A stretch of 64,000 nt of DNA from Escherichia phage Es2. The notes below the pieces were generated by a model. That model saw nothing but the letters and a program-made list of their open reading frames with translations, had not been told where the DNA came from and made no database searches. Position 1 is the stretch's first letter. Each line of letters begins with the position of its first letter. A program made the position numbers and the translations under genes. Positions 9,114 through 61,990 of the stretch are shown here, piece by piece. The DNA lies in sequence record OR515477.1. One strand, written 5' to 3'.

Positions 9114-9156
9114 GATTGACACTAAGTCAGCTTACTAGCAAAAGCAAATAATGACA

Positions 9157-9193
9157 AAGCCCAGCCTGCACTTTTGCGACTGGGCTATTTTTA
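9157..9193 (+). terminator. intrinsic terminator
   Basis: Hairpin GCCCAG...CTGGGC followed by T-run. Confidence 0.6.
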
Positions 9194-9207
9194 TAATAAA
9201 ATTTTAG

Positions 9208-9236
9208 TTGCTTAGATGCCCAAACTTTTGTATAAT
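9208..9236 (+). promoter_or_regulatory. early-type sigma70 promoter
   Basis: TTGCTT - 17 bp - TGTATAAT, RBS AAGAGGA. Confidence 0.7.
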
Positions 9237-9267
9237 ATGTTTATAGATTGAGGCAAGAGGATTAAAT

Positions 9268-9966
9268 ATGAGGATTATTTCTAAGTTCGCCGATGTGTAT
9301 GATTTGCAGAACAGTTTGTTTGACCCAGATCGTGTGTGGGAACGTAAAACTGAGGAGTTACTGGTTAAAGTAACCGATGATGCAGAAAAGAACATTGTGC
9401 ATACTCGCCAGGTATTTCGTGATGGTTCGCTATCTTTCCGTGGTGATTTCGAATACTTTGTAAACCCACTATTTGTTGCAGGTGAAGTTTACTGGTTACA
9501 CGAGCTGTACTGCTGGCATCCAGCATTTAGCTTCAAAACGTTCAACCTCGACACTATGTTCGATAAAATGGAAGAGATGGGATTGCATGCTCGCTCTTAC
9601 TTAATGGATAAGAGTCGCGGAGATGTTCGTGAAACAATGCGTGATTTGCTCGCTGAAGCAAAACCTAAAGCAGAACGTATCTTATCCGAACTGCGTGTAC
9701 CGATTGCATATGTGAAAGGTATTAAGAAGAACGATAACGATGATGTTCGTAACTTCGTGATTCAGACTAACATTCGTTTCCATCAGTCAGGTATTCCGTG
9801 GCAGGAAATTGAAAGTAACTTATACCGTTTACACCAAGTTCTCGAACAGTATATCTTCGGTGTACTAGGAACTGGTGAGCCTGATATGATTAAAGTATCA
9901 GATAAAGACAGGTTAGCAGCGCATGGATTTGATACAAAAACTTCTTTCAGGAATATGGCAAGGTAA
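9268..9966 (+). CDS. hypothetical early protein
   Basis: Track ORF 232 aa. Confidence 0.65.
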   Translation: MRIISKFADVYDLQNSLFDPDRVWERKTEELLVKVTDDAEKNIVHTRQVFRDGSLSFRGDFEYFVNPLFVAGEVYWLHELYCWHPAFSFKTFNLDTMFDKMEEMGLHARSYLMDKSRGDVRETMRDLLAEAKPKAERILSELRVPIAYVKGIKKNDNDDVRNFVIQTNIRFHQSGIPWQEIESNLYRLHQVLEQYIFGVLGTGEPDMIKVSDKDRLAAHGFDTKTSFRNMAR

Positions 9967-10372
9967 GTGGTATATCCTGGGAGCAGGTCTAGCGATAGGC
10001 ATCGGGTTCGGTGCTTATCACTTAGTAGATAAAGTGGAGACTTTAGCGGGAGATCTTGCGGTAGCTACTAAAAAGATCTCTTCTCTAGAAACTTCCCTTA
10101 ATAAGGTGAAAGCTGAGAGCGAACTTCGGGAGACTCGAATGAACCAGTATTTCACAATGAATAATATTTCGCAAGCAGATCTAGACAAAAAGATTAAGCA
10201 GCTAGATAAAGCTCTTAGTCGTCAAGATATTATAGCTGCAAAGCCTGGATTGGTAACATTAATAGCTAAAAAGCAGAGTAGAGAGTTCGAGGAAAGATTA
10301 GCATGTTTAACTGGAAACTTGGAATACTGCTCGCAGCCGCAATCACAATCACAGGCTGTGCAGAAGAAATAA
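9923..10372 (+). CDS. hypothetical membrane-anchored coiled-coil protein
   Basis: Track ORF 149 aa; N-terminal TM helix; start uncertain (overlaps upstream ORF). Confidence 0.5.
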   Translation: MDLIQKLLSGIWQGKWYILGAGLAIGIGFGAYHLVDKVETLAGDLAVATKKISSLETSLNKVKAESELRETRMNQYFTMNNISQADLDKKIKQLDKALSRQDIIAAKPGLVTLIAKKQSREFEERLACLTGNLEYCSQPQSQSQAVQKK

Positions 10373-10656: not shown

Positions 10657-11408
10657 TGTCAGTATTAGTCGGTTTACATGGTGAAGCTGGTTCGGGAAAA
10701 GATACCGTTGCAAAATTAATTATCGATTGGTGTAATGACACGTATCCAACGTGTTTATCCCGTCGTTATAGTTTTGCTAAGCCCGTTTATGAACTTGCAT
10801 CCGTAATCCTCGGTGTAACTCCAGAGTTTCTAGGAGAGCGCAGAGGAAAAGAGATTGCTCAATGGTTTACGGTCACACAATCTCAATTGGAGCGAGCTAG
10901 AGATGTGTGGTTTAAATACGGTATCGATAAGTTTGAAGACTTCTCGTACGTTTGGCCTATTTTTGAGGAAAAATATCTTAATCCTCAACAACTTATCTCA
11001 GAGAATAAAGAAGACGGACTTTATAGTTTATTTATTTCTCCGAGAAAAATGTTACAGCTCGTAGGGACAGAGCTAGGAAGGCAGCTGGTGCATGAACGCA
11101 TTTGGCTCATAATTCTGGAGCAATCCATCGCTAAAGACGACCCAGACGTCGCCGTAATAACAGATGTTAGATTCCCCAATGAAGGAGAGCTACTCAGAGA
11201 AACAAACCATTTAGATATGGATTCTTTGATAGTAAATGTAGTACCCGCTGAGCAGAAGTTTACTATTAAATCAGATCATCCATCTGAAAGTGGTATTCCT
11301 GCAAAATATATTACTCACGAATTAGTTAATAAATTCGATGGTATCAATAACCTTAAACTAGAAGTTTATAACTTCTGTGACTTAGAGCTAGAACCACTAG
11401 TTGGATAA
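10656..11408 (+). CDS. dnk: deoxynucleoside monophosphate kinase
   Basis: 250 aa; P-loop GEAGSGKDT; size matches my recollection of the T5 enzyme. Confidence 0.75.
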   Translation: MSVLVGLHGEAGSGKDTVAKLIIDWCNDTYPTCLSRRYSFAKPVYELASVILGVTPEFLGERRGKEIAQWFTVTQSQLERARDVWFKYGIDKFEDFSYVWPIFEEKYLNPQQLISENKEDGLYSLFISPRKMLQLVGTELGRQLVHERIWLIILEQSIAKDDPDVAVITDVRFPNEGELLRETNHLDMDSLIVNVVPAEQKFTIKSDHPSESGIPAKYITHELVNKFDGINNLKLEVYNFCDLELEPLVG

Positions 11409-12176: not shown

Positions 12177-12833
12177 TTGGAAAAGTTCTTACAATTATTA
12201 ACGGTACTGCTCCAAGAAGCGAAAGATCCAGCATCGCTTCTTAAACGTCTGCTAACTATCTTAGTTGCTGTCATTATTTTCTTATTTGTTAGTAATACTA
12301 GCGAGGTGATGTCATTCTTAAAGACTTTCTCCACGTCTGCGGTTCTACAGGATGTTCAAACTCAAAGGATAGATAACTTTCCTAATGTAGCTAGAGAAAA
12401 AAGCATGGTACTCTTTTCTCAAACGGGTGCGGATGCTGTTTTTGTCGTCAAGTATAAACCCGATGCCATTAATGATTATTCTAACATTATTGCATGGGAA
12501 AGCAATGCGCAATTAGATAGGGCTGACTTGGCCGATAAAGCGGTAAATAAAACGTCTGAGCTATATAGACGTCACTTGGAAGGCTTTAACTACGCATCGG
12601 ATTTAAGTGTAAAAGTAAATAAATACATGGGGTTAGATATACCTGCGTTTAAGAACGTTACTTTTAATTACATATACACTTGTCCATATTTCAATCTAAA
12701 CAATATCTATGCTGGATATATTGGTATTGCTTGGAAAGATAATCCTGTAGATGCAGCCGATTCTGAGAAATTTAACGAGTATTTAACAAAGCTCTGTTCC
12801 CCACAACAGAGATCTTTAGGTAGATCAATATGA
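12177..12833 (+). CDS. hol: holin (putative), TTG start
   Basis: 218 aa; TM segment near N-terminus; directly upstream of endolysin; GAGGAGG RBS before TTG. Confidence 0.6.
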   Translation: MEKFLQLLTVLLQEAKDPASLLKRLLTILVAVIIFLFVSNTSEVMSFLKTFSTSAVLQDVQTQRIDNFPNVAREKSMVLFSQTGADAVFVVKYKPDAINDYSNIIAWESNAQLDRADLADKAVNKTSELYRRHLEGFNYASDLSVKVNKYMGLDIPAFKNVTFNYIYTCPYFNLNNIYAGYIGIAWKDNPVDAADSEKFNEYLTKLCSPQQRSLGRSI

Positions 12834-13243
12834 GTTTTAAATTTGGTAAAAATAGTGAAAAACAATTAGCTACCGTTAAGCCAGAGCTACAAAAAGTAGC
12901 TCGTAGAGCTTTAGAATTATCTCCATATGATTTCACGATCGTACAGGGTATTCGTACAGTAGCACAAAGTGCCCAGAATATTGCTAATGGTACTTCATTT
13001 TTAAAAGATCCTAGTAAAAGCAAGCATATTACTGGGGATGCCCTTGATTTTGCTCCATATATTAATGGCAAAATTGATTGGAATGATTTAGAAGCATTTT
13101 GGGCAGTTAAAAAGGCTTTTGAACAAGCAGGTAAAGAACTAGGCATTAAACTTCGTTTTGGTGCTGATTGGAATGCTTCGGGAGACTATCACGATGAAAT
13201 AAAACGTGGTACCTATGATGGCGGTCATGTCGAACTAGTTTAA
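12830..13243 (+). CDS. lys: endolysin, L-alanyl-D-glutamate peptidase type
   Basis: 137 aa; H..D..H zinc-peptidase-like motif positions (HITGDALDF, DGGHVE); size matches my recollection of T5 Lys. Confidence 0.75.
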   Translation: MSFKFGKNSEKQLATVKPELQKVARRALELSPYDFTIVQGIRTVAQSAQNIANGTSFLKDPSKSKHITGDALDFAPYINGKIDWNDLEAFWAVKKAFEQAGKELGIKLRFGADWNASGDYHDEIKRGTYDGGHVELV

Positions 13244-13254
13244 TTGATAACTGA

Positions 13255-13278
13255 GGCGGGAATATTCCCGCCTTTTTA
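13255..13278 (+). terminator. intrinsic terminator
   Basis: Hairpin GGCGGG-AATATT-CCCGCC followed by TTTTT. Confidence 0.7.
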
Positions 13279-22579: not shown

Positions 22580-22918
22580 AATCTCATAGATTAACAACTA
22601 CTCTAGTTGATTAACTCTAGGGGCGATGATTATTACACGAATGTCTCGTATAGCTTGCGGCCTAGCAACAGCGGTATGACGGCATGAGTACTCACGTAAT
22701 TAATCACGCGCCCACAGGAGAGACTCTCATGAAATTGGGGGTCTCTTTTTCTTTATATTATTTAAATATTTTTAATGGCAATATCTGTGTTCAAGATGAT
22801 ACACCTGTTGCCGCTCATCTGCTAGGATGGCACAACACTTTCTTCTAGACTCCTAAGTTTCTAGGAATAGTTGAGCACTAACTCTAGAGTTTACATTAAA
22901 CTTTAAATCTGTTTCTCT

Positions 22919-23075
22919 AGTCAACTCAGGCGGTTTTCATATTCCTAGAAACTCTAGCAATAGGCGGTTAATACAGGGCGGTTTTAGGGAGGGCGGTTAT
23001 TTCTAGAAGACATTTTTTGAAAACACATTTCTAGAAATTACTGTCGTATTTGCACACTGCATTTCTAGAAATTTA
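22919..23075. repeat. GGCGGTT direct repeats and ATTTCTAGAAAT palindromic 12-mers
   Basis: Four GGCGGTT(T/A) copies between 22919 and 23000; TTTCTAGAA(A/G) palindromes at about 23010, 23030 and 23062. Confidence 0.7.
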
Positions 23076-23643
23076 TGGTCGGATTTGCACAAACGCCTAA
23101 GTTTTTAGGAACATATAATCTCTTGAAAATGGCAGCATTATTTCGGGCCGAAGGCCCGTGATTGCCTGAGTTTTTAGAGCCACAAGAATTTTCACTTGTC
23201 AAGCTATTTTGCCCCATTTAGCAAATAAAATTTTACTTTATCTCCTCTAATCTCAAATTAACCCAAATCTTCTCAACTCTTCCCCAAAATACCCGCAAAT
23301 CAGGTGCTCCGCACCAAACATGCGCCTCTCCCACAGTTCCCCCAAAATTTCTCTCGCTCTCTCAACTTCTCCCCAAACATACACAATCACACACCCTCCA
23401 ATCGAAGCCACAAAAATCTTGTCGGATTCGCACATCTTAATCCTAGAAAAACCGTGTCGGATTTGCACATACCCCACAGGATTCGAACGCAGTTCGAGAT
23501 TGCTGGAGTTTTTAGGAAAATTCATTGTCGGATTCGCACACTATAAAAATTTTTCGGGTCGGATTTGCACACTACCAAAAATTGTCGGATTCGCACATAC
23601 ACGCCCGCACGTAACACCCGTGGAGCAATGTCGGATTTGCACA
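23042..23643 (+). repeat. eight direct copies of 15-bp motif (T/G)GTCGGATT(T/C)GCACA
   Basis: Copies at 23042, 23077, 23420, 23455, 23525, 23556, 23582 and 23629, all in the same orientation. Confidence 0.85.
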
Positions 23644-23667
23644 AAAGCGCAGGGCAATTGCCCTGCG
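23644..23667. repeat. perfect 24-bp palindrome AGCGCAGGGCAATTGCCCTGCGCT
   Basis: Read directly; centred on CAATTG, immediately after the last 15-bp repeat. Confidence 0.85.
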
Positions 23668-23880
23668 CTAAATGAGAATAAAAATAAGAATCATTCTCAT
23701 TTAGAAAGCGGAATGAGAATGATAATAATTCGCATTTAGAAAGCGAAATGAGAATCAATCTCATTTAAGAACGGAAACGAAAATTATTCAGGAAGTGAAA
23801 CGATTCTCATTTAGAAAGTGGAATGATTCTCATTTAGAAAGTGGAATGCAAATGATAATGATTCGCATTTAAGAATGGAA
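23668..23880. repeat. degenerate repeat family TCATTTAGAAAG(C/T)GGAATGA(T/G)
   Basis: At least six related copies with internal dyads (GAATGATTCTCATTC-like); a further copy at 24207-24232. Confidence 0.7.
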
Positions 23881-24012
23881 GTGAGAAACACTGTTATTTA
23901 AGTTATCCACAGACTTATCAACAGCACGATTTGACTTGACAAAATTCTAGCCATTTTGAGGCGTTATCAACAGACTTATCAACAGCTTATCCTACTGTAT
24001 AAATATACAGTA
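23880..24012. repeat. inverted-repeat arm L with DnaA-box-like 9-mers
   Basis: TTATCCACA at 23903 and TTATCAACA at 23915, 23964 and 23976; palindrome CTGTATAAATATACAG; reverse-complementary to 27111-27245. Confidence 0.8.
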
Positions 24013-24378
24013 TTCCTATGCAGTGAATAATTCTAATATACAGCTAAAACGCTCTCAAACGCATTCTAACGCGTTTAATTTTGGTGGGGATACTAAAACA
24101 CGGGCAAAATTGGAGGAGGCTTAGAAATTAGTTAGCTCGCTAACGATCACACAAGGCGACACGTAACATCCTAACCATTAGCAGGCTAACCATCGCGGGC
24201 GCGGTCAAATGAGAATGATTCTCATTTGAGAATTGGGGGCACTTCCTGATAGTTGCGCCCCGTGATTATTACAGTAGTGGGCAACCTTTACGCTTTGCCC
24301 ATTCCCGCCACTCATCTTGATGTCTAGACTTGCGACGGCGTACTAAAAACCATTTATACCAGTGATTAAACCATCGTT

Positions 24379-24582
24379 TCATAAATCCTCCTCCGGTAGT
24401 CGGTGCGTGATTTTTTCCTCCTCTCCGTAGGAATCCACTAAATGCTGATAATAACCATCGTGATCATAAATCACTTTATCATATTCGCCACGCTCGACCG
24501 CTTGTCGGTTTTCCGGCGTATCTGGCACGTAAAAAACATCAACCATTGTACTGATTTTGGTTACAACAATTTTATTGCTCAT
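24379..24582 (-). CDS. hypothetical small acidic protein
   Basis: Track ORF 67 aa; about 15 Asp/Glu against 7 Lys/Arg; last gene of the leftward operon. Confidence 0.55.
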   Translation of the reverse strand: MSNKIVVTKISTMVDVFYVPDTPENRQAVERGEYDKVIYDHDGYYQHLVDSYGEEEKITHRLPEEDL

Positions 24583-24607
24583 AATAACGCTCCGTTATTA
24601 TATAATC

Positions 24608-24952
24608 TCATTGTGCCACCTTTCGAAACGCTGTTTCAATACTTTCCGCAGTTGACTGAATATACGCGCCTTTCATGATCAGGCGCTCAGTGCATACCTT
24701 ACGGAAGATATTAATAAAATCATCTTCATTTTCTGCAATTAACGCTTCACCCATAACCTGAACGTCACAAGATGCAAAGGTCAAAAATTGAAACGCTAGT
24801 TCACGGGCAACGACCTCATTGATTTTATAATGCGCCTTGCCCTCATAAATATTAATAACGCCCTTATATGTTGGGGAAAGCTGATTTAAATAATTTGCTA
24901 ATAATGCTGGGCGGCAATTAGCAATAAAACGATTGCCTTCATAAATAACCAT
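24608..24952 (-). CDS. hypothetical protein
   Basis: Track ORF 24608..24967 trimmed to MVIYEG start with GGGAGG RBS. Confidence 0.55.
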   Translation of the reverse strand: MVIYEGNRFIANCRPALLANYLNQLSPTYKGVINIYEGKAHYKINEVVARELAFQFLTFASCDVQVMGEALIAENEDDFINIFRKVCTERLIMKGAYIQSTAESIETAFRKVAQ

Positions 24953-25079
24953 TTGACAGCCTCCCAATTAGATAGCCAGATAATAACATAAAGATCCCCA
25001 ATGAAAGGGGGTCATTTTTAAATAGGGTGGCGGTAAAACCGCCAGCCATTGCAAGGATGATAACAATAACGCTTTTCAT
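24939..25079 (-). CDS. hypothetical 46-aa membrane micro-protein
   Basis: Hand translation MKSVIVIILAMAGGFTATLFKNDPLSLGIFMLLSGYLIGRLSNGYL; overlaps neighbouring genes; below track cutoff. Confidence 0.4.
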   Translation of the reverse strand: MKSVIVIILAMAGGFTATLFKNDPLSLGIFMLLSGYLIGRLSNGYL

Positions 25080-25288
25080 AGTACCCCACGAAACGCAGCG
25101 TAAAAGGTGGCAAAATGTTTAACTGTTTCAGCTATCACGTTGCCGCGCTTGTCAAATTTCTTTTCTGTAACACGAAAGGCATTCTTATTACGTGCTACAT
25201 ATTCAATTTTACAATCTTCCCGCTCGAACGTGTTAACATCCACCAGCTTAAAGCCTTTCGAACGTGCAAGAGAAACATTGCGGATCAT
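25076..25288 (-). CDS. hypothetical basic protein
   Basis: Track ORF 70 aa; AGGAG RBS 8 nt upstream. Confidence 0.55.
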   Translation of the reverse strand: MIRNVSLARSKGFKLVDVNTFEREDCKIEYVARNKNAFRVTEKKFDKRGNVIAETVKHFATFYAAFRGVL

Positions 25289-25293
25289 TTTTA

Positions 25294-25440
25294 TTCTCCT
25301 TTACTAGTCATGCAGCCCAGCAGATAAGAAAATGCAGCGATACCCGCGCCAATAATAACCGCGTGAACACCGAAAGCTATTGCAAAAAGGGATAAAATAG
25401 CGCCCAAGATACCTGCTAGAATAGCTCGAAAAATAACCAT
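25294..25440 (-). CDS. hypothetical 48-aa membrane micro-protein
   Basis: Hand translation MVIFRAILAGILGAILSLFAIAFGVHAVIIGAGIAAFSYLLGCMTSKGE; GGAGA RBS; below track cutoff. Confidence 0.45.
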
Positions 25441-25486
25441 TTTCATTCTCCTAGTTTGCGGGGCGAAAGTAACGCCCCGTTATTAC

Positions 25487-25717
25487 TTACATTAAAACAA
25501 TTTTTGCCGCTTGTTTTTTAGTACAGTGTTCCGCTTTCAGGGTATCCAGCAAAAAGCCGGCCGTTTGCTGATCGATTTTATCGGCGTTGTATAGTTCTTG
25601 GATGGTGTTATAAGTTTTAGCAATGCCGAACTCCTGCACCATTTCATGAATGATGGCGCGATTAGATACCCAGCCTTGCGCGGTGAACAGATGACTAGCA
25701 GAAGAATAAGCAACCAT
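25487..25717 (-). CDS. hypothetical protein
   Basis: Track ORF 25487..25750 trimmed to MVAYSS start with GGAGG RBS. Confidence 0.55.
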   Translation of the reverse strand: MVAYSSASHLFTAQGWVSNRAIIHEMVQEFGIAKTYNTIQELYNADKIDQQTAGFLLDTLKAEHCTKKQAAKIVLM

Positions 25718-25835
25718 TTTAAACCTCCAAATTTTTGGGAAAATTTTCAACCGTCCTCAAACGGTGTAAAGGCATTATAACAAAAAAGGTCGCCATAAAA
25801 GGCGACCTTTACAAAACTTTACATTAGATTATTTA

Positions 25836-26846
25836 TTACTCGTTTTCGGTGTTAGTGGTAAAAGTAGAAATATCGATACCTTTTACCATTTCATCAATCA
25901 TTTCAGCGATGTTAAAACTTTGCACCATTTCCAACATTGCCGCTTCCATAGCTGCCCCTGCTACCGCTTTCGCTTTCTGGTTGCTTGGGGCATACTGGTC
26001 AACCGCTACGCTCAGCAGGTTGGCAATTACTACTCGACCGATAGGCGTATCAATATAACCTTTAATCATGAACGGTGCTTTTTTAGCCGCTACTTTCGTA
26101 ATTTGAGTCAGTGCAATTTTACCCGCTTCCAGTTTTGCAGCGTTTACAACGGCGGATTTATTAGCGGCAACGATGTTAGCAATCTTGGTCATGGTATTTT
26201 TTCCTTTATTTTCAGTGATTTGAGTATTAACGCTTTGAGTGTTAGAATTTACAGCATGGTTTTCTACGCTGTCAATAATCTGATCTTCATCTTTCCAGAA
26301 AGAAAAACCAGCGCTTTCTATATCCCCATCATAAATATACGGGTATAGCTCCCGTGGTAACAAAAAATTACCGTCGCCATCAAAAGCCATTATACCGGTA
26401 TATTGAGATCCGTCGTTATCCGGCTTATACCATCCAGCGGGTAAATACTTCCAGATAACATCTAAAAATCCCTCAATGCTAGAAAGTCCATTTATCAGAT
26501 CAAGCCCAATAAGCTCAAAACCATTTATATTAAATGATTGACGGCCTGAATTGCTATGATACGCAACAATAGTATTGCCCTGCGCAACAATAAAATCGGT
26601 ATCCGGCCCCGCTCCCCTGCCCGTAAAGATATGGCAATCCCGATTATGTAAAACTAGCGTTGCCCCTTGCTTATATAAGGGTAGAAAACTATCCATATCA
26701 TAGGCGTCATATTCATCAAAAAAGTTTTGATGAATAGTTTCAACCTTGTTAATAAAATGTTTAATGCTGGTTGACTTGCTACCGTCCAGCAGGTTACGCA
26801 ATGCACCTTTTAAGACGGTTGCGTTATCTGGTTTATAAAGCCTCAT
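25836..26846 (-). CDS. hypothetical protein with Ala/Lys-rich C-terminal half
   Basis: Track ORF 336 aa; first gene of the leftward operon. Confidence 0.65.
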   Translation of the reverse strand: MRLYKPDNATVLKGALRNLLDGSKSTSIKHFINKVETIHQNFFDEYDAYDMDSFLPLYKQGATLVLHNRDCHIFTGRGAGPDTDFIVAQGNTIVAYHSNSGRQSFNINGFELIGLDLINGLSSIEGFLDVIWKYLPAGWYKPDNDGSQYTGIMAFDGDGNFLLPRELYPYIYDGDIESAGFSFWKDEDQIIDSVENHAVNSNTQSVNTQITENKGKNTMTKIANIVAANKSAVVNAAKLEAGKIALTQITKVAAKKAPFMIKGYIDTPIGRVVIANLLSVAVDQYAPSNQKAKAVAGAAMEAAMLEMVQSFNIAEMIDEMVKGIDISTFTTNTENE

Positions 26847-27110
26847 TTGTTCGGCCTCCTCGTTAATCGGTGAGTGAATGATAAAGGTATTTTCTTTCTA
26901 GGGGCAAATATTATTTTACCTTTTTATTTTCTTTGCCTAACTCCTAGTTTTATGCTAATCGCGCAGCGGTACAGTAAAGAGCAAAACACGGCGAAGCCAC
27001 CAGGGCGACGGGTGAAGGCTTTACTTTAATATTACCCCACTGCATTTAGCTCGTTAGAAAGCGATTTAGGCCGCTTAAAATTGATTGCAGTTGTTAACAC
27101 TACCTTTTTA

Positions 27111-27245
27111 CCCTGTATATTTATACAGTAGGATAACCTGTGGATAAGTCTGTGTAAAAGTCCTTATATCGCCGCCTATCATGTCAAGTTATTTTACAAA
27201 ATGTATAAGTCTGTGGATAACTTAAATAATAGTGTTTCTCACTAA
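27111..27245. repeat. inverted-repeat arm R with DnaA-box-like 9-mers
   Basis: TGTGGATAA at 27139 and 27212; palindrome CTGTATATTTATACAG; reverse-complementary to 23880-24012. Confidence 0.8.
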
Positions 27246-27410
27246 CTAATTTATGCAGTTATTATATCGTAAAATATAGTTAGTTGGCTAATAGGATTTT
27301 AAAGTGATTATGAGTCCGCTAATTAAACCTGAAAAACTCATTAGCTAGTCTGCTAATCATTTTGATATAATATAATAGAGATTAAATTAATAACATAAGG
27401 AAACAATTAG

Positions 27411-27929
27411 ATGCCTAAATATAAACATATAGATTATGACCTTTTTAATAGTTACTTTTATTATGATGAAACATCGTTATCATTTTTACGCTGGCGAGAA
27501 GATCATGCCATCGCTGGTGGTTTAAATGGTAATTATTGGCAAGTTGAATTATTAGATAAAGGACAATTCAAAGTACATAGAATTATTTTTTGTATAATGA
27601 ATGGTGGTATAGATAGCGAGCTAATGATTGATCATATTGATCGTAACCCCCGTAATAATAACATTTGGAATCTTCGCGCGGTTGATAGTTCCCAGAATAA
27701 CTATAATAAGACTCCTAGTGAGTATGAAAACTATAAGCGTGCTAATGGTATCCCTAGAAACATTTACGTTAATAAAATTCGCCCCCGTGATAGTTTCGGG
27801 CGTGATTATTTAACTGCTCAAATTAAGAATCCTATTACTAACAAGCGTGTTAGTAAGTCTGGTTATGATTTACAAGAGTTATTATTATGGCTTGAAGCTA
27901 AAAAAGCTGAATTCGGAATTGTCAATTAA
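27411..27929 (+). CDS. HNH endonuclease (homing-endonuclease-like)
   Basis: 172 aa; HIDRNPRNNNIWNLR...SQNNYNK His-Me finger pattern; AT-rich gene inside a more GC-rich module. Confidence 0.65.
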   Translation: MPKYKHIDYDLFNSYFYYDETSLSFLRWREDHAIAGGLNGNYWQVELLDKGQFKVHRIIFCIMNGGIDSELMIDHIDRNPRNNNIWNLRAVDSSQNNYNKTPSEYENYKRANGIPRNIYVNKIRPRDSFGRDYLTAQIKNPITNKRVSKSGYDLQELLLWLEAKKAEFGIVN

Positions 27930-28154
27930 TTTATTTTATAAATTAACTCGTTTAGTCTTGATTTTTAAAAGTCAAGACCTTTTTCAACTATTTTTCAATT
28001 TTGCGGTTGTTAAATATTTGTTAAACCGAAAATAAGCCGCCTAAAACGCCCCAGAACGCGATGAAAGTTTTAGTCATGCCATTGCATTGCCTACCCTCGT
28101 TTATCGCTACCACGAGCTTTTTAGATTTTGTCAAGTAGGGGAAAGCAAATATAA

Positions 28155-28445
28155 ATGAAAAAATTACTTGCCTATCTGCTATGTTTTGTGGTATTCACGC
28201 GCCCGTTTCTTTTAATTTTAGTGTGCCGCGCCCTAGTCGCCGCACGCCGTCCGGTGAATCGTGTCTTTACGTTTCTTTACAAAAATAAGGTTGCGCCATT
28301 TTCGGGAATCCCCTATTATTTATCACGTAGGGCGGCAATGACGAACTACACGGCGGGAAGTTTACCGCCACGCTCTTTAAAAATTGGGTATATCTTAAAG
28401 CCTATCGGCGGTAAACTTATTCATTATAAGGAATCGACGATATGA
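28155..28445 (+). CDS. doubtful ORF (possible small secreted protein)
   Basis: Track ORF 96 aa with hydrophobic N-terminus, but GC-rich and structured region; could be non-coding. Confidence 0.25.
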   Translation: MKKLLAYLLCFVVFTRPFLLILVCRALVAARRPVNRVFTFLYKNKVAPFSGIPYYLSRRAAMTNYTAGSLPPRSLKIGYILKPIGGKLIHYKESTI

Positions 28446-28645
28446 AACAAACGCTTTTGATAACTGGTAAACCAGCTAAAAAATTAGATGGTACTACTAA
28501 AAAATTGTTGACAGTAGCGCAAAGATCCATAAGATATAGATTCACGCAGTACAAGAAAGGCCGCCAGCAAGGTTTAGAAATGATCTGGCGAAATATTATG
28601 ATTGACCTGAAAGAAAATCATAAAAAACTGCAAAAAATTGTTTGA
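28442..28645 (+). CDS. hypothetical small basic protein
   Basis: Track ORF 67 aa; bracketed by a 17-bp perfect inverted repeat. Confidence 0.5.
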   Translation: MKQTLLITGKPAKKLDGTTKKLLTVAQRSIRYRFTQYKKGRQQGLEMIWRNIMIDLKENHKKLQKIV

Positions 28646-28670
28646 CACCCTAGCCGATAGGCTTTAAGAT
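28642..28670 (+). promoter_or_regulatory. sigma70 promoter overlapping an inverted-repeat arm
   Basis: Consensus TTGACA at 28642, 17-bp spacer, TAAGAT at 28665; overlaps IR arm 28653-28669. Confidence 0.5.
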
Positions 28671-28875
28671 GTACCCAGTTCGATGAGAGCGATAACTTGA
28701 TACAATTTGACGGTCGGTGCTTACCATAATGCATCCCGCCCCCTAACTGGGATATAGCGGCCTGAGTGGAGTTCTTTAAATTGATTATAATGGCGAGCGG
28801 ATTGTTACTTATTACCTGCTACTATTTTCTAGTAGGTAATGCGAAACAATCCCCTAAATAACTGGAGTTTATACT

Positions 28876-29127
28876 ATGCAAAACGTTACTAATGCGCCGA
28901 AAATTGGTCAATCCGTTTTTATCCCTTTCGTTACCAAAACGGATGAATTAACCGGAAAAGCCGAACGTATTAAAGGTGCGGCGCTTATGCCGTTCGATAC
29001 AATCGACGCGGTATACGCTGAAAATGAACGCAGTAACAACGGCAAGCCGATTTATAACGTTCGCGTTAAATCCGGCGACGTTGTAAAGGTTGTTCAACGC
29101 AACGAAAAATGGGAAGCTGTACTGTAA
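28876..29127 (+). CDS. hypothetical pre-early protein
   Basis: Track ORF 83 aa, GGAG RBS; followed by a 9-bp-stem hairpin at 29143-29168. Confidence 0.6.
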   Translation: MQNVTNAPKIGQSVFIPFVTKTDELTGKAERIKGAALMPFDTIDAVYAENERSNNGKPIYNVRVKSGDVVKVVQRNEKWEAVL

Positions 29128-29225
29128 TCTAGTGTTAACTTTATATTCCCCTGAAATATGGGGAATATAACGATTAACATTAGTTAATCATAATCCCTTA
29201 AATTAAACTAATAGGAGTTTATATC

Positions 29226-29633
29226 ATGACTAACGCAAAAACCGCAAAATTCGCATGGAATGAAGAAAACACCCAAAAAGCTGTTACCATGTACCAGCAG
29301 TTAATCAACGAAAACGGTTTAGATTTCGCAAATAGTGACGGGCTGAAAGAGATTGCAAAAGCAGTAGGCGCGGCTTCTCCCGTATCCGTTCGCTCAAAAT
29401 TGACCAGTGCAAAAGCCTACCAGAAAAGCGATAAGCCGCGTAAAGTTGGCGGCGGCAGTTCTGTACGCAAAGCGCATTATGTGCGTGTTATTGCTAAACA
29501 TGCCATTGATTCCGGCATTATCAAAGACGCTGACGATCTGGCATCACTGGAAAGTGCAAAACTTGAAACGCTGGACGCGGTAGCGCAATTGCTAGGCGTT
29601 GCCGATGAAGTGAAACAAGCCGCAGGCGAATAA
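29226..29633 (+). CDS. A2: A2-like pre-early protein (putative DNA-binding)
   Basis: 135 aa; position immediately upstream of the A1-like gene; assignment by synteny and size only. Confidence 0.5.
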   Translation: MTNAKTAKFAWNEENTQKAVTMYQQLINENGLDFANSDGLKEIAKAVGAASPVSVRSKLTSAKAYQKSDKPRKVGGGSSVRKAHYVRVIAKHAIDSGIIKDADDLASLESAKLETLDAVAQLLGVADEVKQAAGE

Positions 29634-29722
29634 TAGTTATACATTGCCCTTCCTAGTGGGAGGGCAATAATATAACTGTTTAGCGATAGTTATTTTCTTC
29701 CCTTAAATCAGGAGTTTTAAAA

Positions 29723-29920
29723 ATGATTTTCTTTCCTACTGAATCATTAATTTTAGGCTTGTTTATTATGGCGGCCTCATTATTGTTCGCTTATTTTCAA
29801 AATGATTTAGATTCATATTATTTTAAACGTAAATCTAAGTTAGCAAAGCGTTTAGGTCTGATTTGTTTTATTGCCGCCGTTGCTTGTGGTGTTAGTTCTA
29901 GCCTTATGCCTTTAAATTAA
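29723..29920 (+). CDS. hypothetical membrane protein
   Basis: Track ORF 65 aa, two hydrophobic segments. Confidence 0.5.
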   Translation: MIFFPTESLILGLFIMAASLLFAYFQNDLDSYYFKRKSKLAKRLGLICFIAAVACGVSSSLMPLN

Positions 29921-30016
29921 TGTTGCAAATTATAACGCCTATTATTCAAGGCGTTATATTTGGCAATATTTGCCAATAACAAACGTTTTTTAATCCCTTT
30001 AATGGAGTTTATTACT

Positions 30017-31681
30017 ATGATTATTTCCGCAGAAAAACAAACCGTTATCCTGAAAATGGCCGCTGACTTTAATTTCTATGGTAAACGTCTGCGCGCCACT
30101 AAACTGGAGGTCTGCGACGATATATCAAAAGCGGTCTACGATACAACAAAACACTCGACCGCCATTTGTGATTGGCTGGAAGCAAATAAACCAGTTAAAC
30201 CAAAAGCTGCAAAAGTAGCAAAAGCTATTAAAAACGATGAGCGCCCCGAAGCGGCTGGGATCGTTTCTAGCACGGTTGAACAGTGGGAAGTAAAACAAGG
30301 CAAACGCTTTATTATTACGTCGATTCAGAATAATACTTTCCCGCATAAAAACTTTTTGGCCTCGCTTGAACAGTATGCTAAATACATCGGCGCTGATTTG
30401 CTTGTTTCTAAGTATATTTATAATAAAAACGGCTTCCAAAATGGTGAAGGTGCGGATGGAATCAAATATGATTCCGCGTTCGATAAGTATATTTGCAGCA
30501 AAAACGTGTTTTTAAACAACCGCCGTTTTGCTTTCATGGCTGAAATTAACGTTTTGCCTACCGCAGATTATCCGCTTTCTGGATTCGCTGAAACTGCAAC
30601 GGCGCTTAATCTTGAAGGTCTGGCAATTGGTCACGCTAAAATCACCGCCGAAAGCGTGCCAGCTTTAAAAGGTGAAGTAGTACGCCGCATGTACTCAACC
30701 GGAACGGCAACGCTAAAAAACTACATTCAGCAGAAAGCAGGGCAAAAAGCGGAAGCGCTGCATAACTTCGGTGCGCTGATTGTTGAGTTCGACGAAGACG
30801 GTGAGTTTTTTGTACGCCAGCTTGAAACAATGGACGAAAGCGGGGTGTTTTATGATCTGAATGTTTGCGCTACTCCCGCAGGATGCTATGAAACATCGGG
30901 GCATGTTTTAGGTTTACAATATGGCGACATCCACGCAGAAAAATTAGATGATGATTGTGCCGTTGCGTCATGGGCTGGCGAAAATAGCTTGCTTGATATT
31001 CTTAAACCAAAATATCAGTTTATCCATGACGTTCACGATTTTACATCTCGCAATCATCATAATCGTGCGTCCGGTGTATTCCTAGCGAAACAGTACGCCG
31101 CCGGACGTGATAAAGTTCTGGATGATCTTATCGATACGGGGCGCGTGCTGGAATCAATGGAACGTGATTTTAGTCAAACGATCATTGTTGAATCGAATCA
31201 CGATTTGGCGCTATCCCGTTGGCTGGATGATCGTAATGCTAACATTAAAGACGATCCAGCAAACGCCGAACTATATCACCGCCTGAATGCTGCAATTTAC
31301 GCGGCAATCGGTGAACACGACGAAACGTTTAACGTGTTAGATTATGCGCTGCGCAAGGTTGCAGGTTGCGAGTTTAACGCCATTTTCCTAACAACTGACC
31401 AATCATTTAAAATTGCAGGCATCGAGTGTGGCGTACACGGTCACAACGGCATTAACGGAAGCCGTGGCAATCCTAAACAGTTTAAGAAATTGGGCAAACT
31501 GAACACGGGGCATACGCATACGGCAAGCATTTACGGCGGGGTATACACCGCTGGCGTGGCTGGTAGTCTGGACATGGGTTACAACGTTGGCGCGTCAAGC
31601 TGGACGCAAACGCATTTAATTACCTATGCAAACGGTCAGCGCACTTTGATTGACTTTAAAAACGGTAAATTCTTTGCGTAA
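30017..31681 (+). CDS. A1: A1-like pre-early protein with metallophosphatase motifs
   Basis: Track ORF 29960..31681 trimmed to ATG at 30017 with GGAG RBS (554 aa); ESNHD and GHTHT phosphoesterase-like motifs. Confidence 0.7.
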   Translation: MIISAEKQTVILKMAADFNFYGKRLRATKLEVCDDISKAVYDTTKHSTAICDWLEANKPVKPKAAKVAKAIKNDERPEAAGIVSSTVEQWEVKQGKRFIITSIQNNTFPHKNFLASLEQYAKYIGADLLVSKYIYNKNGFQNGEGADGIKYDSAFDKYICSKNVFLNNRRFAFMAEINVLPTADYPLSGFAETATALNLEGLAIGHAKITAESVPALKGEVVRRMYSTGTATLKNYIQQKAGQKAEALHNFGALIVEFDEDGEFFVRQLETMDESGVFYDLNVCATPAGCYETSGHVLGLQYGDIHAEKLDDDCAVASWAGENSLLDILKPKYQFIHDVHDFTSRNHHNRASGVFLAKQYAAGRDKVLDDLIDTGRVLESMERDFSQTIIVESNHDLALSRWLDDRNANIKDDPANAELYHRLNAAIYAAIGEHDETFNVLDYALRKVAGCEFNAIFLTTDQSFKIAGIECGVHGHNGINGSRGNPKQFKKLGKLNTGHTHTASIYGGVYTAGVAGSLDMGYNVGASSWTQTHLITYANGQRTLIDFKNGKFFA

Positions 31682-31735
31682 TTAAATTATTACCCTAGCG
31701 GCTTGAAATACAGCCGCTATTATAGGAGTCAAAAA

Positions 31736-31993
31736 ATGAAAGTTACATTACCCAAAACATTAGACGAAAAAGCGTTTATTTCCCCCGATGAAATGGAATC
31801 CGATAAAGTTTACAGCTTCGGGCCTATCCTAGCCGCCAAAACTAATACTGATGGAATTATTACAGTCGATTATCGTGATAATGATATTGTTCCCTTTGAC
31901 GATGATGACGCTTTTTACGAGTGGTTAAGCGATAATAATTTACCCGTAAGTGGTGAATTAACGCCGTATCAGATGCAAATCATTATCAAATAA
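31736..31993 (+). CDS. hypothetical pre-early protein
   Basis: Track ORF 31703..31993 trimmed to ATG at 31736 with AGGAG RBS. Confidence 0.55.
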   Translation: MKVTLPKTLDEKAFISPDEMESDKVYSFGPILAAKTNTDGIITVDYRDNDIVPFDDDDAFYEWLSDNNLPVSGELTPYQMQIIIK

Positions 31994-32032
31994 TTTAAAT
32001 CCCCTTATTAAACTAATTGGAGTTTTATAACT

Positions 32033-32425
32033 ATGAAAAAGCAAAATATCCCATTCGACCGCGCTCAGTCCTCAATTGTTCTGGTTTATTCCAACGGCGA
32101 ACGTTACCACGTCGAGGCGGGGCACGTTATTGATGACCTATTAGATTTCAATGACGCTTTGCAGGTTACTACCTTTGCATATACGCAGGGCAAACTAACC
32201 AGCCATATTAAAGCAAAAGGCGTTTATGTTGACACGGTGAAACAAGAAACGATTATCATCGACGCCGTAAAATCCGGCCTAGCCTTTGCAGTTGTCGCGC
32301 CTTGCCTCGCTTGCCTTGATGATCAATTGATTAGTGCAAAGGTCTACACATGTGCGGGGATTCGTTCTAGCGTATCCGGTGAGGATGTTAGTTTTATCGC
32401 TGATGCGTTGGCTTATGGTCTTTAA
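32033..32425 (+). CDS. hypothetical pre-early protein
   Basis: Track ORF 130 aa, GGAG RBS. Confidence 0.6.
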   Translation: MKKQNIPFDRAQSSIVLVYSNGERYHVEAGHVIDDLLDFNDALQVTTFAYTQGKLTSHIKAKGVYVDTVKQETIIIDAVKSGLAFAVVAPCLACLDDQLISAKVYTCAGIRSSVSGEDVSFIADALAYGL

Positions 32426-32505
32426 TAGTTGATTTATTATTGCCCGCTTATAAATAGCGGGTAATGCTGAATTAATCTAATCCCTTAAATGGAGAACGTA
32501 ACAAA

Positions 32506-33240
32506 ATGAGTCAAGTTAAAACGAATATTACCCGCTCTTTCCCGCATATTTCCCGCGTTATGATTTGGGATCTGGACGGCACTATCATTAATTCTTTCCA
32601 TCGTGTAGCGCCTTGTTTTGATAGCGAGGGCAATTTAGATTTAAATAAATATAAAAATGAAGCCTGCAAACATCATTTAATAATGCAGGATTCATTATTG
32701 CCATTAGTTGAATATATGCGCCAGTGTATGAATGACGCTAACACGTTAAACATTATTTGCACCGCTCGACTGATGAGCAAGTCAGATTATTATTTCTTGC
32801 GTAAACAAGGATTGCGGGGGCGTGGAAATAGCAATATCCGCGTGTTTTCCCGCGATACCCTGCACAAATACTTTAAAGCTGATAAAGTTAGCGAGATATA
32901 CCACAGTAAGGACGCAGTTTATAAATCTTATTATTTTGAATTATTTAAACAATTATATCCGAACGCTGATTTTACAATGATTGATGATCATAAAGGCGTG
33001 TTAGCGGCGGCGGCATCATACGGATTTAAAACGCTGGACGCACAAGCCGTTAACGATATTCTATCAATCGGTGTTACATTGATTGGTGAAACCTTTATTG
33101 ATGAATCGCTCGACGATGATAATGATTATCAGTTCCTAGCAGACCGCCTGCAATTATGTTGGGAAGGTATGACCGAGGAAGAACGCGCAGAATATAGTTG
33201 CAGTCCTCAACAGTACATCGAGAAATTAAAAGTTGCATAA
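32506..33240 (+). CDS. dmp: 5'-deoxyribonucleotidase, HAD family
   Basis: 244 aa; HAD motif I IWDLDGTIINS; size and position match my recollection of T5 dmp. Confidence 0.75.
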   Translation: MSQVKTNITRSFPHISRVMIWDLDGTIINSFHRVAPCFDSEGNLDLNKYKNEACKHHLIMQDSLLPLVEYMRQCMNDANTLNIICTARLMSKSDYYFLRKQGLRGRGNSNIRVFSRDTLHKYFKADKVSEIYHSKDAVYKSYYFELFKQLYPNADFTMIDDHKGVLAAAASYGFKTLDAQAVNDILSIGVTLIGETFIDESLDDDNDYQFLADRLQLCWEGMTEEERAEYSCSPQQYIEKLKVA

Positions 33241-33397
33241 TAATTAAAGTTGAAATAGTCACGGTGTGTAATGATAACATGCCGTGACTATTAGTCTGCT
33301 AAGTACCGGGCGGTAATGAGACTCATTCTCATCTGGTGGGCCACTGGACACACCTCCATGTGTAATCTTATGAAATTTGGCAAAAAGGTAATTAGCG

Positions 33398-60244: not shown

Positions 60245-61990
60245 ATGGTAACTAAAACAGTAATTCCTACGGATATTACAAAACTTAAAAACGAGTCACT
60301 TAATAAGAATAATAACCTGAGTGACTTAGCAGACCGTGCAGCAGCATGGCTAAATGTGCGTCCTATTGGATCCACCCCTCTTGCGGGGGATCCTGTTGGG
60401 GACTATGATGCCGCAACTAAACGTTGGGTAGAGAATAAGATTAACACTGGTACAGTTGGACCCACTATGAATGGTGTTATGAACTACGGTGTTGGTGATT
60501 TTCACCTCCGAGATAGTCGTGCATATATTCAACCATACGAAGTCGTTTCTGACGGACAGCTTCTTAATAGGGCTGACTGGCCTGAGCTTTGGGCTTATGC
60601 TCAGATGGTTGGGCTTATAGAGGATTCCGTCTGGTTAGCGGATAAATTCCAGCGTGGTAAATACTCATCAGGAGATGGAACAACAACTTTTCGTGTTCCA
60701 GATAGGAATGGGGTACAGCAAGGGTCAATACGTGCTCTTTATGGTCGTGGTGATGGCGGTATGTCCGACGCTAACGGTCGTGCTTTTGAATCCGCTGCAC
60801 CGAATATTACAGGTGCTGTTCCTAGCTACTCAGGAGGTATGTATGCTCAGGTATTCGGTTCTGCTGCTAGAGGTGCATTCTTTTCTGATAATATGCTTTT
60901 TCCTAACGGGGATGGGGATGTCATCCCTGCAGGTAAGACACCGCTTACTGGCCGTTGTAACACGCTAAATTTTGACGCCTCACGTTCAAGTCCAATTTAC
61001 GGAGCATCAAATGATGAGATTCTTACACGAAATTTTGTAGGTGTATGGGTGATTCGTGCATCTGGTGGTTTCGTTGCAGCAAATACATCATGGAGTGTTA
61101 TTAACGGCGATGCGACCAGACCGATAGACGGCACAAGAGTTGAATCAGGGAAAGTAAGCGTAGAATATAAGATTGGAACGGCTATTGAGGCGCAGGGTAA
61201 TGTCTATACTGCTGCAACAATGGGTGGGGCATATTCTACCCAGCTCTCTGTTAAAAATGCCACTACGGGCAAAGAGAAAGATATCAGCGTCACAGAAGAT
61301 GGTGATCTGTGGTCCGACCGCTTTAAGGCTAGATTTGGCACCCGTATGGCTTGGGCTCAGACCGGCTGGGCCTATGGCACATTTTCCCAAGCCAACCAAT
61401 CCATCGGTAACGACTACAATTTCTACAGTATTCTTAGCGGCTCCCAAAGTTCAAGCACGGGCTATAAAACTCATACCCATATTGGTCAAATCCACAATGA
61501 CAACGGTTCATTTGCTGATAGCTGCTGGCATGTTGCAGGTGATGATGATAACAAATATGGTGTACGTTTAAAAATTCAGCCTAATAATAATAGTATTTAT
61601 TTCTATTCTTGGTGGCCTGGTGCTTCAGCAGTCTATACTTTGCAATTAAATGCTGTATCTGATTCTCGCTTAAAGCATGATATTAAGGCTATAGACGCAA
61701 CTAAGTCCATCGAGGTATTAAAAGGATTAGAATTCCAATCCTTTGTATATAATAACGATGAAAAATCTCGCGTCCGACGTGGGGTTATTGCTCAGCAAGT
61801 AGAGACTATAGAACCACTTTATGTAAAAACTAGAAGATTTTATAATAATGATGGGGTGGAGCAAGAACAGAAGGAATTAGATACGACTCCAATGCTTCTT
61901 GACACTATGCATGTCGTGCAAGAACTTATAAAACGGATTGAATCTTTGGAAGAAGAACTCAAACAATTAAAAGTACAATTAGTACAGTAA
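60245..61990 (+). CDS. long tail fibre protein, distal part (LtfB-like) with C-terminal intramolecular-chaperone-like domain
   Basis: 581 aa; C-terminal SDSRLKHDI...RRGVIAQQVE segment and terminal coiled coil resemble self-cleaving fibre chaperone domains. Confidence 0.65.
   Translation: MVTKTVIPTDITKLKNESLNKNNNLSDLADRAAAWLNVRPIGSTPLAGDPVGDYDAATKRWVENKINTGTVGPTMNGVMNYGVGDFHLRDSRAYIQPYEVVSDGQLLNRADWPELWAYAQMVGLIEDSVWLADKFQRGKYSSGDGTTTFRVPDRNGVQQGSIRALYGRGDGGMSDANGRAFESAAPNITGAVPSYSGGMYAQVFGSAARGAFFSDNMLFPNGDGDVIPAGKTPLTGRCNTLNFDASRSSPIYGASNDEILTRNFVGVWVIRASGGFVAANTSWSVINGDATRPIDGTRVESGKVSVEYKIGTAIEAQGNVYTAATMGGAYSTQLSVKNATTGKEKDISVTEDGDLWSDRFKARFGTRMAWAQTGWAYGTFSQANQSIGNDYNFYSILSGSQSSSTGYKTHTHIGQIHNDNGSFADSCWHVAGDDDNKYGVRLKIQPNNNSIYFYSWWPGASAVYTLQLNAVSDSRLKHDIKAIDATKSIEVLKGLEFQSFVYNNDEKSRVRRGVIAQQVETIEPLYVKTRRFYNNDGVEQEQKELDTTPMLLDTMHVVQELIKRIESLEEELKQLKVQLVQ

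Follow-up and report, generated by a model that had tools for sequence, protein, structure and literature searches.

A perfect 24-bp palindrome in a T5-like phage corresponds by sequence to T5 palindrome J and overlaps a predicted major nick site

Introduction

What the nicks in phage T5 DNA do and what the T5 injection stop signal (iss) consists of are old unsolved questions, and papers up to 2026 still call iss experimentally uncharacterized. A description of the T5 iss region is said to have been given by Heusterspreute et al. in 1987. The region is treated, with its repeats and palindromes, by Wang et al. (2005) and Davison (2020), and in Davison's proposal its DnaA boxes constitute the injection stop element. 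The major T5 nicks follow the consensus 5'-R/GCGCRGG-3' (here and below, a slash within a sequence marks the nick), five copies of which are found, uncut, on the un-nicked T5 strand (PMC3517423). T5 nick coordinates derive from old end-sequencing (pGCGC), EM map positions, and matches to the consensus, and not from base-resolution mapping. The T5 nicking functions, sciA and sciB, belong to the late region and are known genetically only; the sequence-level identity of these genes was not found in the literature that we searched. T5 mutants without nicks are viable.

Two independent T5 records annotate a major nick in the iss region. In NC_005859 (NC_005859/AY543070, Ksenzenko et al.), a 'major DNA single-chain interruption' is placed on the complementary strand at 9748/9749, which is the A/G step of ACAAAA/GCGCAGGGCAATTGCCCTGC (in its wider sequence, ...TGCACAAAA/GCGCAGGGCAATTGCCCTGCTCGCC...). 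AY587007 (Wang et al. 2005) has 'palindrome J' at 9650-9666 and 'direct repeat D copy 1' at 9672-9686; its 'major single-stranded nick 1, 7.9%', with the sequence CCCTGCGC (complementary to GCGCAGGG), overlaps the palindrome at 9661-9668. The sequence of the 7.9% nick is repeated in the right terminal repeat, where it is the 99.5% nick. The two references disagree within palindrome J, which reads GCAGGCAATTGCCCTGC in AY587007 (locus L054 of our set, 551-567) and GCAGGGCAATTGCCCTGC in NC_005859 (locus L001, 3730-3747). Because the GGG form is present in all relatives, the reading in AY587007 probably stems from strain variation or from a sequencing error.

Here, we compare with these annotations a palindrome in the genome of a T5-like phage. 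The element is already known, as T5 palindrome J and nick 1 in the iss region, and it is not a new kind of element. What is new is a modest comparative observation on the variants of the site.

Results

The palindrome lies within the terminal repeat of a T5-like genome

The window, i.e. the whole stretch of 64,000 nucleotides that was analyzed (Escherichia phage Es2, OR515477.1), was compared with pieces of the T5 genome by local BLAST. It is a Tequintavirus (T5-like) genome in the reverse complement of the T5 map, with one copy of the terminal repeat assembled. Its layout is as follows.

1-23177: T5 early region, from ~33 kb back to 10.2 kb (BLAST)
~23178-33350: terminal repeat (BLAST)
after ~33350, rest of the window: T5 from 111.5 kb back to 79.7 kb (BLAST)
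23177-23257, no strand: inner boundary inferred for the terminal repeat from homology with two T5 annotations (10,219 and 10,139)
24269-24582, minus strand: last pre-early ORFs, i.e. the homologue of T5.017 (24379-24582) and a conserved 37-aa ORF (24269-24382), whose transcripts head toward the hairpin described below

The palindrome is found about 390-470 bp (~0.4-0.5 kb) within the terminal repeat, depending on which T5 boundary annotation is chosen. It is housed in an ORF-free stretch of ~1.5 kb (22850-24270) that corresponds to the T5 iss region. The 1.6 kb around it match 457 phage records, which with few exceptions are T5-like Demerecviridae; Tequintavirus S130/S131 matches best (about 92%).

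Two further observations concern this setting. The 37-aa ORF (MKRWFNHWYKWFLVRRRKSRHQDEWREWAKRKGCPLL, 24269-24382, minus strand) overlaps the stop of the T5.017 homologue; its frame is also visible in the T5 sequence, unannotated in NC_005859, and a short CDS is annotated at the counterpart place in phage SIA3lw. In addition, many T5-like GenBank records (e.g. NBSal005, SP01, faergetype, fuchur, gmork, and SPLA5b) begin or end at the equivalents of ~23178, the T5-type repeat boundary, or of ~23555, which is within the array of direct repeat D (DRD). This spread reflects either different repeat boundaries or different end-calling among relatives.

The palindrome is longer than expected by chance

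AGCGCAGGGCAATTGCCCTGCGCT, which occurs once in the 64-kb window, is a perfect dyad of 12 + 12 nt centered on CAATTG. An earlier reading of the window, made from the sequence only, had recognized both its length and its center; the position it gave (23644-23667) was shifted by 2 nt, and the palindrome really occupies 23646-23669. The flanking outer pair, A23645/A23670, is unpaired, so that 24 bp is the full length. The same reading had described the palindrome as GC-rich in AT-rich surroundings and as immediately following the last 15-bp repeat. Both descriptions hold, with a GC content of 67% against 39% for the window, and a gap of 2 nt from the end of TGTCGGATTTGCACA at 23629-23643. The features of this neighborhood are listed below.

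23042-23643, plus strand: DRD array, eight copies of the 15-bp repeat, spread across the inner terminal-repeat boundary inferred above
23629-23643, plus strand: 15-bp repeat TGTCGGATTTGCACA (T5 'direct repeat D copy 1'), with a junction to the nick consensus that relatives keep unchanged
23639-23646, minus strand: T-rich tail TTTTGTGC, directly 3' of the hairpin, candidate terminator U-tract
23646-23669, no strand: perfect 24-bp palindrome AGCGCAGGGCAATTGCCCTGCGCT, homologue by alignment of T5 'palindrome J' (AY587007)
23646-23653, plus strand: T5-type nick consensus A/GCGCAGG, assigned from the T5 nick annotations, the consensus, and the orientation of the window; equivalent to the nicked (minus) strand of T5
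23662-23669, minus strand: mirror consensus A/GCGCAGG, made by the perfect outer arm; absent in T5, EPS7, phiR2-01, and similar phages
23668-23900, no strand: AATGAGAAT...ATTCTCATT palindromic repeats (T5 DRC/DRE, palindromes E-I), directly upstream of the hairpin on the minus strand

A+T-rich DNA commonly contains short palindromes, and the window holds 24 perfect ones of at least 12 bp where 21 are expected, which would suit a chance occurrence without function. However, AGCGCAGGGCAATTGCCCTGCGCT is the longest perfect palindrome anywhere in the 64 kb, and a length of 24 bp was reached in none of 200 first-order Markov simulations of the window, in which the longest palindrome measured 16.5 bp on average and 22 bp at most. 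Shuffled sequence gave no match to the palindrome with three mismatches permitted. The site is moreover kept in >400 phage records and is the peak of conservation in its neighborhood. A chance palindrome, to which we attach practically no probability, is ruled out by these length statistics and by conservation in hundreds of related phages.

The left arm of the palindrome matches the T5 major-nick consensus

As judged by sequence alignment, the palindrome is the homologue of T5 palindrome J, which bears a T5 major nick site. The dyad GCAGGGCAATTGCCCTGC has palindrome I/direct repeat C on one side and direct repeat D copy 1 on the other. BLAST mapping of the window onto T5, the two T5 annotations, and an alignment of 34 relatives place the nick position on the T5 minus strand, within the terminal repeat and adjoining direct repeat D copy 1. 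On the plus strand of the window, A/GCGCAGG at 23646-23653 matches R/GCGCRGG. Since this strand corresponds to the T5 minus strand, a nick is predicted between A23646 (3'-OH) and G23647 (5'-P). The assignment is tight in T5, because the 8.6-10.9-kb interval contains only four GCGC sites, one of which fits the consensus on the nicked strand. The sequence-only reading had guessed at a nick site, which is consistent with the T5 annotations at the homologous position (9748/9749; 9661-9668) and with the consensus on the plus strand; its more general suggestion of a recognition site agrees with membership in the T5 palindrome J/nick 1 class.

The other major T5 sites read GGAGA/GCGCAGGGGG at 18.5% (short form GA/GCGCAGGGG), GGAGA/GCGCAGGGCTTTT at 32.6% (short form GA/GCGCAGGGC), and GGTGG/GCGCGGGCAAA at 64.8% (short form GG/GCGCGGGC). 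A hairpin as a general feature of nick sites was considered and rejected, since it is present at 32.6% and absent at 18.5% and 64.8%. The window contains R/GCGCRGG five times on the plus strand and twice on the minus strand. Because of these two minus-strand copies and of the five copies on the un-nicked T5 strand, the consensus is insufficient alone for nicking; its strand bias (5 versus 2 in the window, and 5 on the un-nicked strand of T5) was discarded as uninformative evidence.

Two other places in the window touch on nicking. The homologue of the T5 18.5% site, in the dnk gene at 10833-10846, reads GGAGA/GCGCAGAGG where T5 has GCGCAGGGG. This breaks R/GCGCRGG at position 7, and the window phage may therefore lack the 18.5% nick. 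At 61184-61202 (plus strand), ATTGAG/GCGCAGGGTAATG is another full match to R/GCGCRGG on the equivalent of the nicked strand, at ~82 kb in T5, and is a candidate for an additional or minor nick site.

The nick consensus is constant in the sampled Markadamsvirinae, and the hairpin varies

Pattern scans of IMG/VR and GenBank loci yielded 34 distinct versions of the site. The DRD repeat followed by A or T and then AA/GCGCRGG is invariant in all of these Markadamsvirinae sequences (34/34), including those of the Klebsiella type that have no right arm. The block made of DRD repeat and nick consensus, together with the two arms, forms the conservation peak of the neighborhood. Looking for the palindrome in related phages, as the sequence-only reading had proposed, confirmed that the site is conserved, a 45-nt probe finding it in 410 GenBank records. 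Among 60 of these records taken at even intervals, the perfect 24-bp form accounted for 10 (about 17%) and a large-loop form for about 38%, the remainder being 18-20-bp forms. The versions in relatives include the following.

T5, DT57C, and Shivani types: ...CCCTGC-TC-GCC, 18-bp perfect dyad, outer G-C pairs across a 2-nt bulge
Second hairpin type: ...CCCTGCGACTT, 20-bp dyad
phiR2-01: 8-bp stem, 3-nt loop
EPS7/Epseptimavirus group: 8-bp stem formed by GCAGGGCA and TGCCCTGC, with A-rich loops of 8-10 nt that vary between phages
Contig L030: GCGCGGGGGGCAATTGCCCCCGC, A·T changed to G·C on both arms
Klebsiella-type phages (L018, L040, and L052): A/GCGCAGG kept, right arm wholly missing

The stem persists in the majority of genera; its 8 bp are retained in 12 hairpin variants with loops of 3-14 nt and with one double change from A-U to G-C, and in the bulged variants the outer GCGC remains paired via the 2-nt bulge. 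The gap between the arms is 3 nt in phiR2-01, 4 nt in T5 and the window, and 8-10 nt in the EPS7 group. When the 12 variants were folded together by RNAalifold, all eight core pairs were kept (8/8), with a single compensatory change; the covariation term was -0.15 kcal/mol, and the left arm is frozen by the nick consensus. The case for the stem structure is thus suggestive, not proven, as it rests mostly on tolerance of indels and the covariation is thin. Where the sequence-only reading had offered a hairpin or a cruciform, it is the hairpin that is supported, by a stem that is kept while loops change in relatives, and the duplex cruciform is unsupported. Considering that the consensus is kept where the hairpin is lost, and that two T5 nicks have no dyad, consensus and dyad are separable. 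Pectobacterium phage My1, which belongs to another subfamily, has the DRD and AATGAGAAT repeats; neither palindrome nor consensus is present at that position.

The minus strand displays terminator-like anatomy

RNA of the minus strand (the T5 plus strand), UUUAGCGCAGGGCAAUUGCCCUGCGCUUUUGUGC, folds into a 10-bp stem with an AAUU loop, followed by UUUUGUG. The centroid structure of this hairpin has an energy of -21.4 kcal/mol, and the MFE of the full 66 nt is -22.6 kcal/mol (z = -3.95), with none of 200 shuffles folding equally well. In a terminator scan, the T5 copy passes and is the sole terminator-like match across the T5 iss interval. The window copy is unflagged, because its longer, 12-bp stem leaves just four T in the next eight bases (UUUUGUGC). 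In the GenBank records of Shivani and VAH1, the site is annotated as a terminator on the same strand. Known RNA families were also considered and dismissed: several Rfam sRNA models align their own terminators to the minus-strand hairpin, and to this hairpin alone, all below their gathering scores (the best, rliI, at 28 versus 45 bits). Since the matches are well under these thresholds, they indicate terminator-likeness only and no family membership.

The pre-early minus-strand ORFs end at 24269, and the hairpin is downstream of them, co-oriented and about 600 nt off. Between 24269 and the hairpin there is no better terminator-like site, only a weak candidate at 24070-24043. The hairpin that is annotated in T5 as a terminator after the last pre-early ORF has no T-run in the window phage, so that, on the minus strand, the palindrome is the first convincing candidate for a terminator. 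In the plus direction the hairpin is followed by AAATGAG, and there is therefore no terminator on that side. The second-longest palindrome of the window, AGGCGGGAATATTCCCGCCT at 13254-13273, is followed by TTTTT and lies just past the stop of the ORF at 12830-13243; it is obviously a textbook intrinsic terminator of the same design. Base-resolution data on T5 transcript ends were not found in the literature.

Other repeats and boxes surround the palindrome

The 15-bp repeat TGTCGGATTTGCACA is found letter-for-letter in My1 (Mccorquodalevirinae; locus L057, 12356-12390), which suggests that the DRD repeat is a conserved protein-binding site, possibly for packaging or for the repeat boundary. 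Repeats of the form AATGAGAAT(N)ATTCTCATT also occur at 24205-24229 and 33112-33136. Some copies resemble a Fur box, namely GAGAATGATAATAATTCGC at 23715 with four mismatches and GACGATGATAATGATTATC at 33112 with three. The stretch of AATGAGAAT repeats has BLAST matches in unrelated myoviruses of ~150 kb (Phapecoctavirus and Cronobacter CR8), which hints at a shared binding motif for a host factor. A LexA-like box, TACTGTATAAATATACAGTA at 23993-24012, differs at one position from the E. coli consensus TACTGTATATATATACAGTA; it is conserved in T5, and My1 has a similar box. A weaker LexA-like copy with three mismatches is present at 27111-27130, in the inverted-repeat partner region, and a promoter-like TTGAGA-17-TAGAAT is found just upstream of the box at 23993, on the minus strand (24058-24030). 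DnaA-box pairs spaced 3 bp apart occur at 23903-23923 (TTATCCACA and TTATCAACA) and at 23964-23984 (TTATCAACA twice); they are the boxes of Davison's proposal.

Discussion

We consider it likely that the palindrome is a copy of palindrome J with two overlapping functions, a nick site and a terminator of pre-early transcription. The left arm on the plus strand, A/GCGCAGG(GCAA), would be what the T5-type late nicking system (sciA/sciB in genetic terms) recognizes and cuts; this system makes the major interruption that maps to 7.9% in the left terminal repeat and to 99.5% in the right one. By homology, this late system would recognize R/GCGCRGG in some context and nick the plus strand at 23646/23647 in both copies of the terminal repeat. 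The minus-strand pre-early transcript would fold into a G+C-rich stem-loop of 10-12 bp followed by UUUUGUG, and its anatomy and conservation point to Rho-independent termination ahead of the DRD array and of the terminal-repeat boundary. Use of the dyad as an intrinsic terminator by the minus-strand transcript may be what keeps the right arm complementary. As a matter of geometry only, the predicted nick is on the template strand for this transcript, at the junction between stem and U-tract.

Could the palindrome be a Rho-independent terminator of pre-early transcripts and nothing else, with GCGCAGG incidental or uncut in the window phage? The hairpin with its UUUUGUG tail, the terminator annotations in Shivani and VAH1, the conservation of a stem that tolerates changes in its loop, and the clear terminator formed by another GC-rich perfect palindrome at 13254-13273 all agree with this. 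We nevertheless hold it to be unlikely, because the Klebsiella-type phages keep A/GCGCAGG by the DRD repeat though their right arm is lost, i.e. the consensus is conserved independently of the hairpin, because two T5 annotations put the 7.9% nick here, and because the GCGCAGGG core appears again at other T5 major nicks. Location, on the other hand, is what recommends the palindrome as an element of the injection stop signal, at which a hairpin, cruciform, or bound protein would help to halt transfer once about 8% of the genome is in the cell. The site is within the T5 iss feature (9140-10149), some 110-130 bp away from 9618, the FST shear point as calculated, and the palindrome is among the best-conserved islands of a non-coding region whose repeats and palindromes are credited with the stop in the literature, without experiments. 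Yet My1 has the whole architecture of DRD, DnaA-box, LexA-like, and AATGAGAAT repeats and no palindrome, the right arm is missing in Klebsiella-type relatives, cruciform extrusion would lack supercoiling in linear, nicked DNA, and no experiment in the literature ties the stop to palindrome J. A stop-signal role of this sort therefore appears improbable to us. A pause-site role, as offered by the sequence-only reading, is possible, because first-step transfer stops in the iss region.

The perfect two-fold symmetry in the lineage of the window could also be that of a site bound or cleaved by a dimeric protein, and PalJ is among the candidate palindromes in Davison's model, in which an A1/A2 'restriction-like' cut would release FST DNA with cohesive ends. 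The fixed half-site spacing of a dimeric operator or a type II-like site was not found, as the half-sites are separated by 3, 4, or 8-10 nt with bulged outer pairs, which a rigid dimer would not tolerate, and some relatives have one arm only. With arm spacings of 3-14 nt overall, the site fits poorly with a dimer or restriction-type site and well with a single-strand stem-loop, and we regard dimeric recognition as very improbable indeed.

For the preferred reading, a nick site combined with a terminator, the perfect 24-bp form has a particular consequence. In the lineage that has this form (the window, S130/S131, SP01, NBSal005, and others), A/GCGCAGGGCAATT is identical on both strands, so that perfect outer pairs place the nick consensus on both strands. 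Cutting of the minus strand at the mirror consensus would not be expected, because T5 spares the consensus copies on its un-nicked strand. None of the sampled records of the 24-bp type begins or ends at the palindrome; such an end would have hinted at a double-strand break. Nicking of both copies, which we view as a long shot, would produce two nicks 22 bp apart in virion DNA, i.e. a latent staggered double-strand break. If this were true, the break would lie at the boundary of first-step transfer and a second time near the right genome end, at a distance of about 0.45 kb, and each 5' overhang would be self-complementary and could snap back into a hairpin. It might then play a role in the injection pause, in releasing or circularizing first-step DNA, or in duplicating the terminal repeat; for this last role, the 3'-OH of the plus-strand nick would point into the repeat.

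The most deeply conserved part of the site is the nick consensus, and its partner arm acts like a single-strand hairpin or terminator, unlike a dimer-binding site. Natural variants separate the two features, being one-armed in the Klebsiella type, bulged in T5, and perfect over 24 bp with a dual-strand consensus in the lineage of the window. They provide material on the strand specificity of the T5 nickase and on the role of the hairpin in nicking, termination, and the injection pause.

Compared with typical intrinsic terminators, such as the one at 13254-13273 in the window, the palindrome is similarly perfect and G+C-rich, with an A+T tetraloop and a T-rich tail, and likewise follows co-oriented ORFs. 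It differs in its broken tail (TTTTGTG), in its distance of ~600 nt from the last ORF, and in its overlap with a DNA nick consensus. The sequence-specific one-strand nicks in virion DNA of Pseudomonas phage tf (5'-TACTGTGAC) and of phiKMV-like phages are also without an established function (PMC3517423); unlike T5-type nicks, these interruptions follow an unrelated consensus, occur in unrelated phage families, and have no palindrome at their sites. Within T5, the nicks at 18.5%, 32.6%, and 64.8% share R/GCGC(A)GGG with the window site, on the same strand. The 32.6% nick is also located in a stem-loop followed by TTTT (AAGCCCTG…CAGGGCTT), whereas those at 18.5% and 64.8% are intragenic and, unlike palindrome J, have no dyad. 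As two of the four distinct major sites of T5 are thus intragenic and without a hairpin, the dyad is not needed for nicking. The closest counterpart is T5 palindrome J/nick 1 itself, which has the same position as the palindrome of the window, between AATGAGAAT-type repeats and direct repeat D copy 1, and the same strand, GCAGGGCAATTGCCCTGC core, and A/GCGC step. In T5, however, the perfect dyad spans 18 bp, with outer GC pairs across a 2-nt bulge (…CCCTGCTCGCC), whereas in the window it is perfect over 24 bp.
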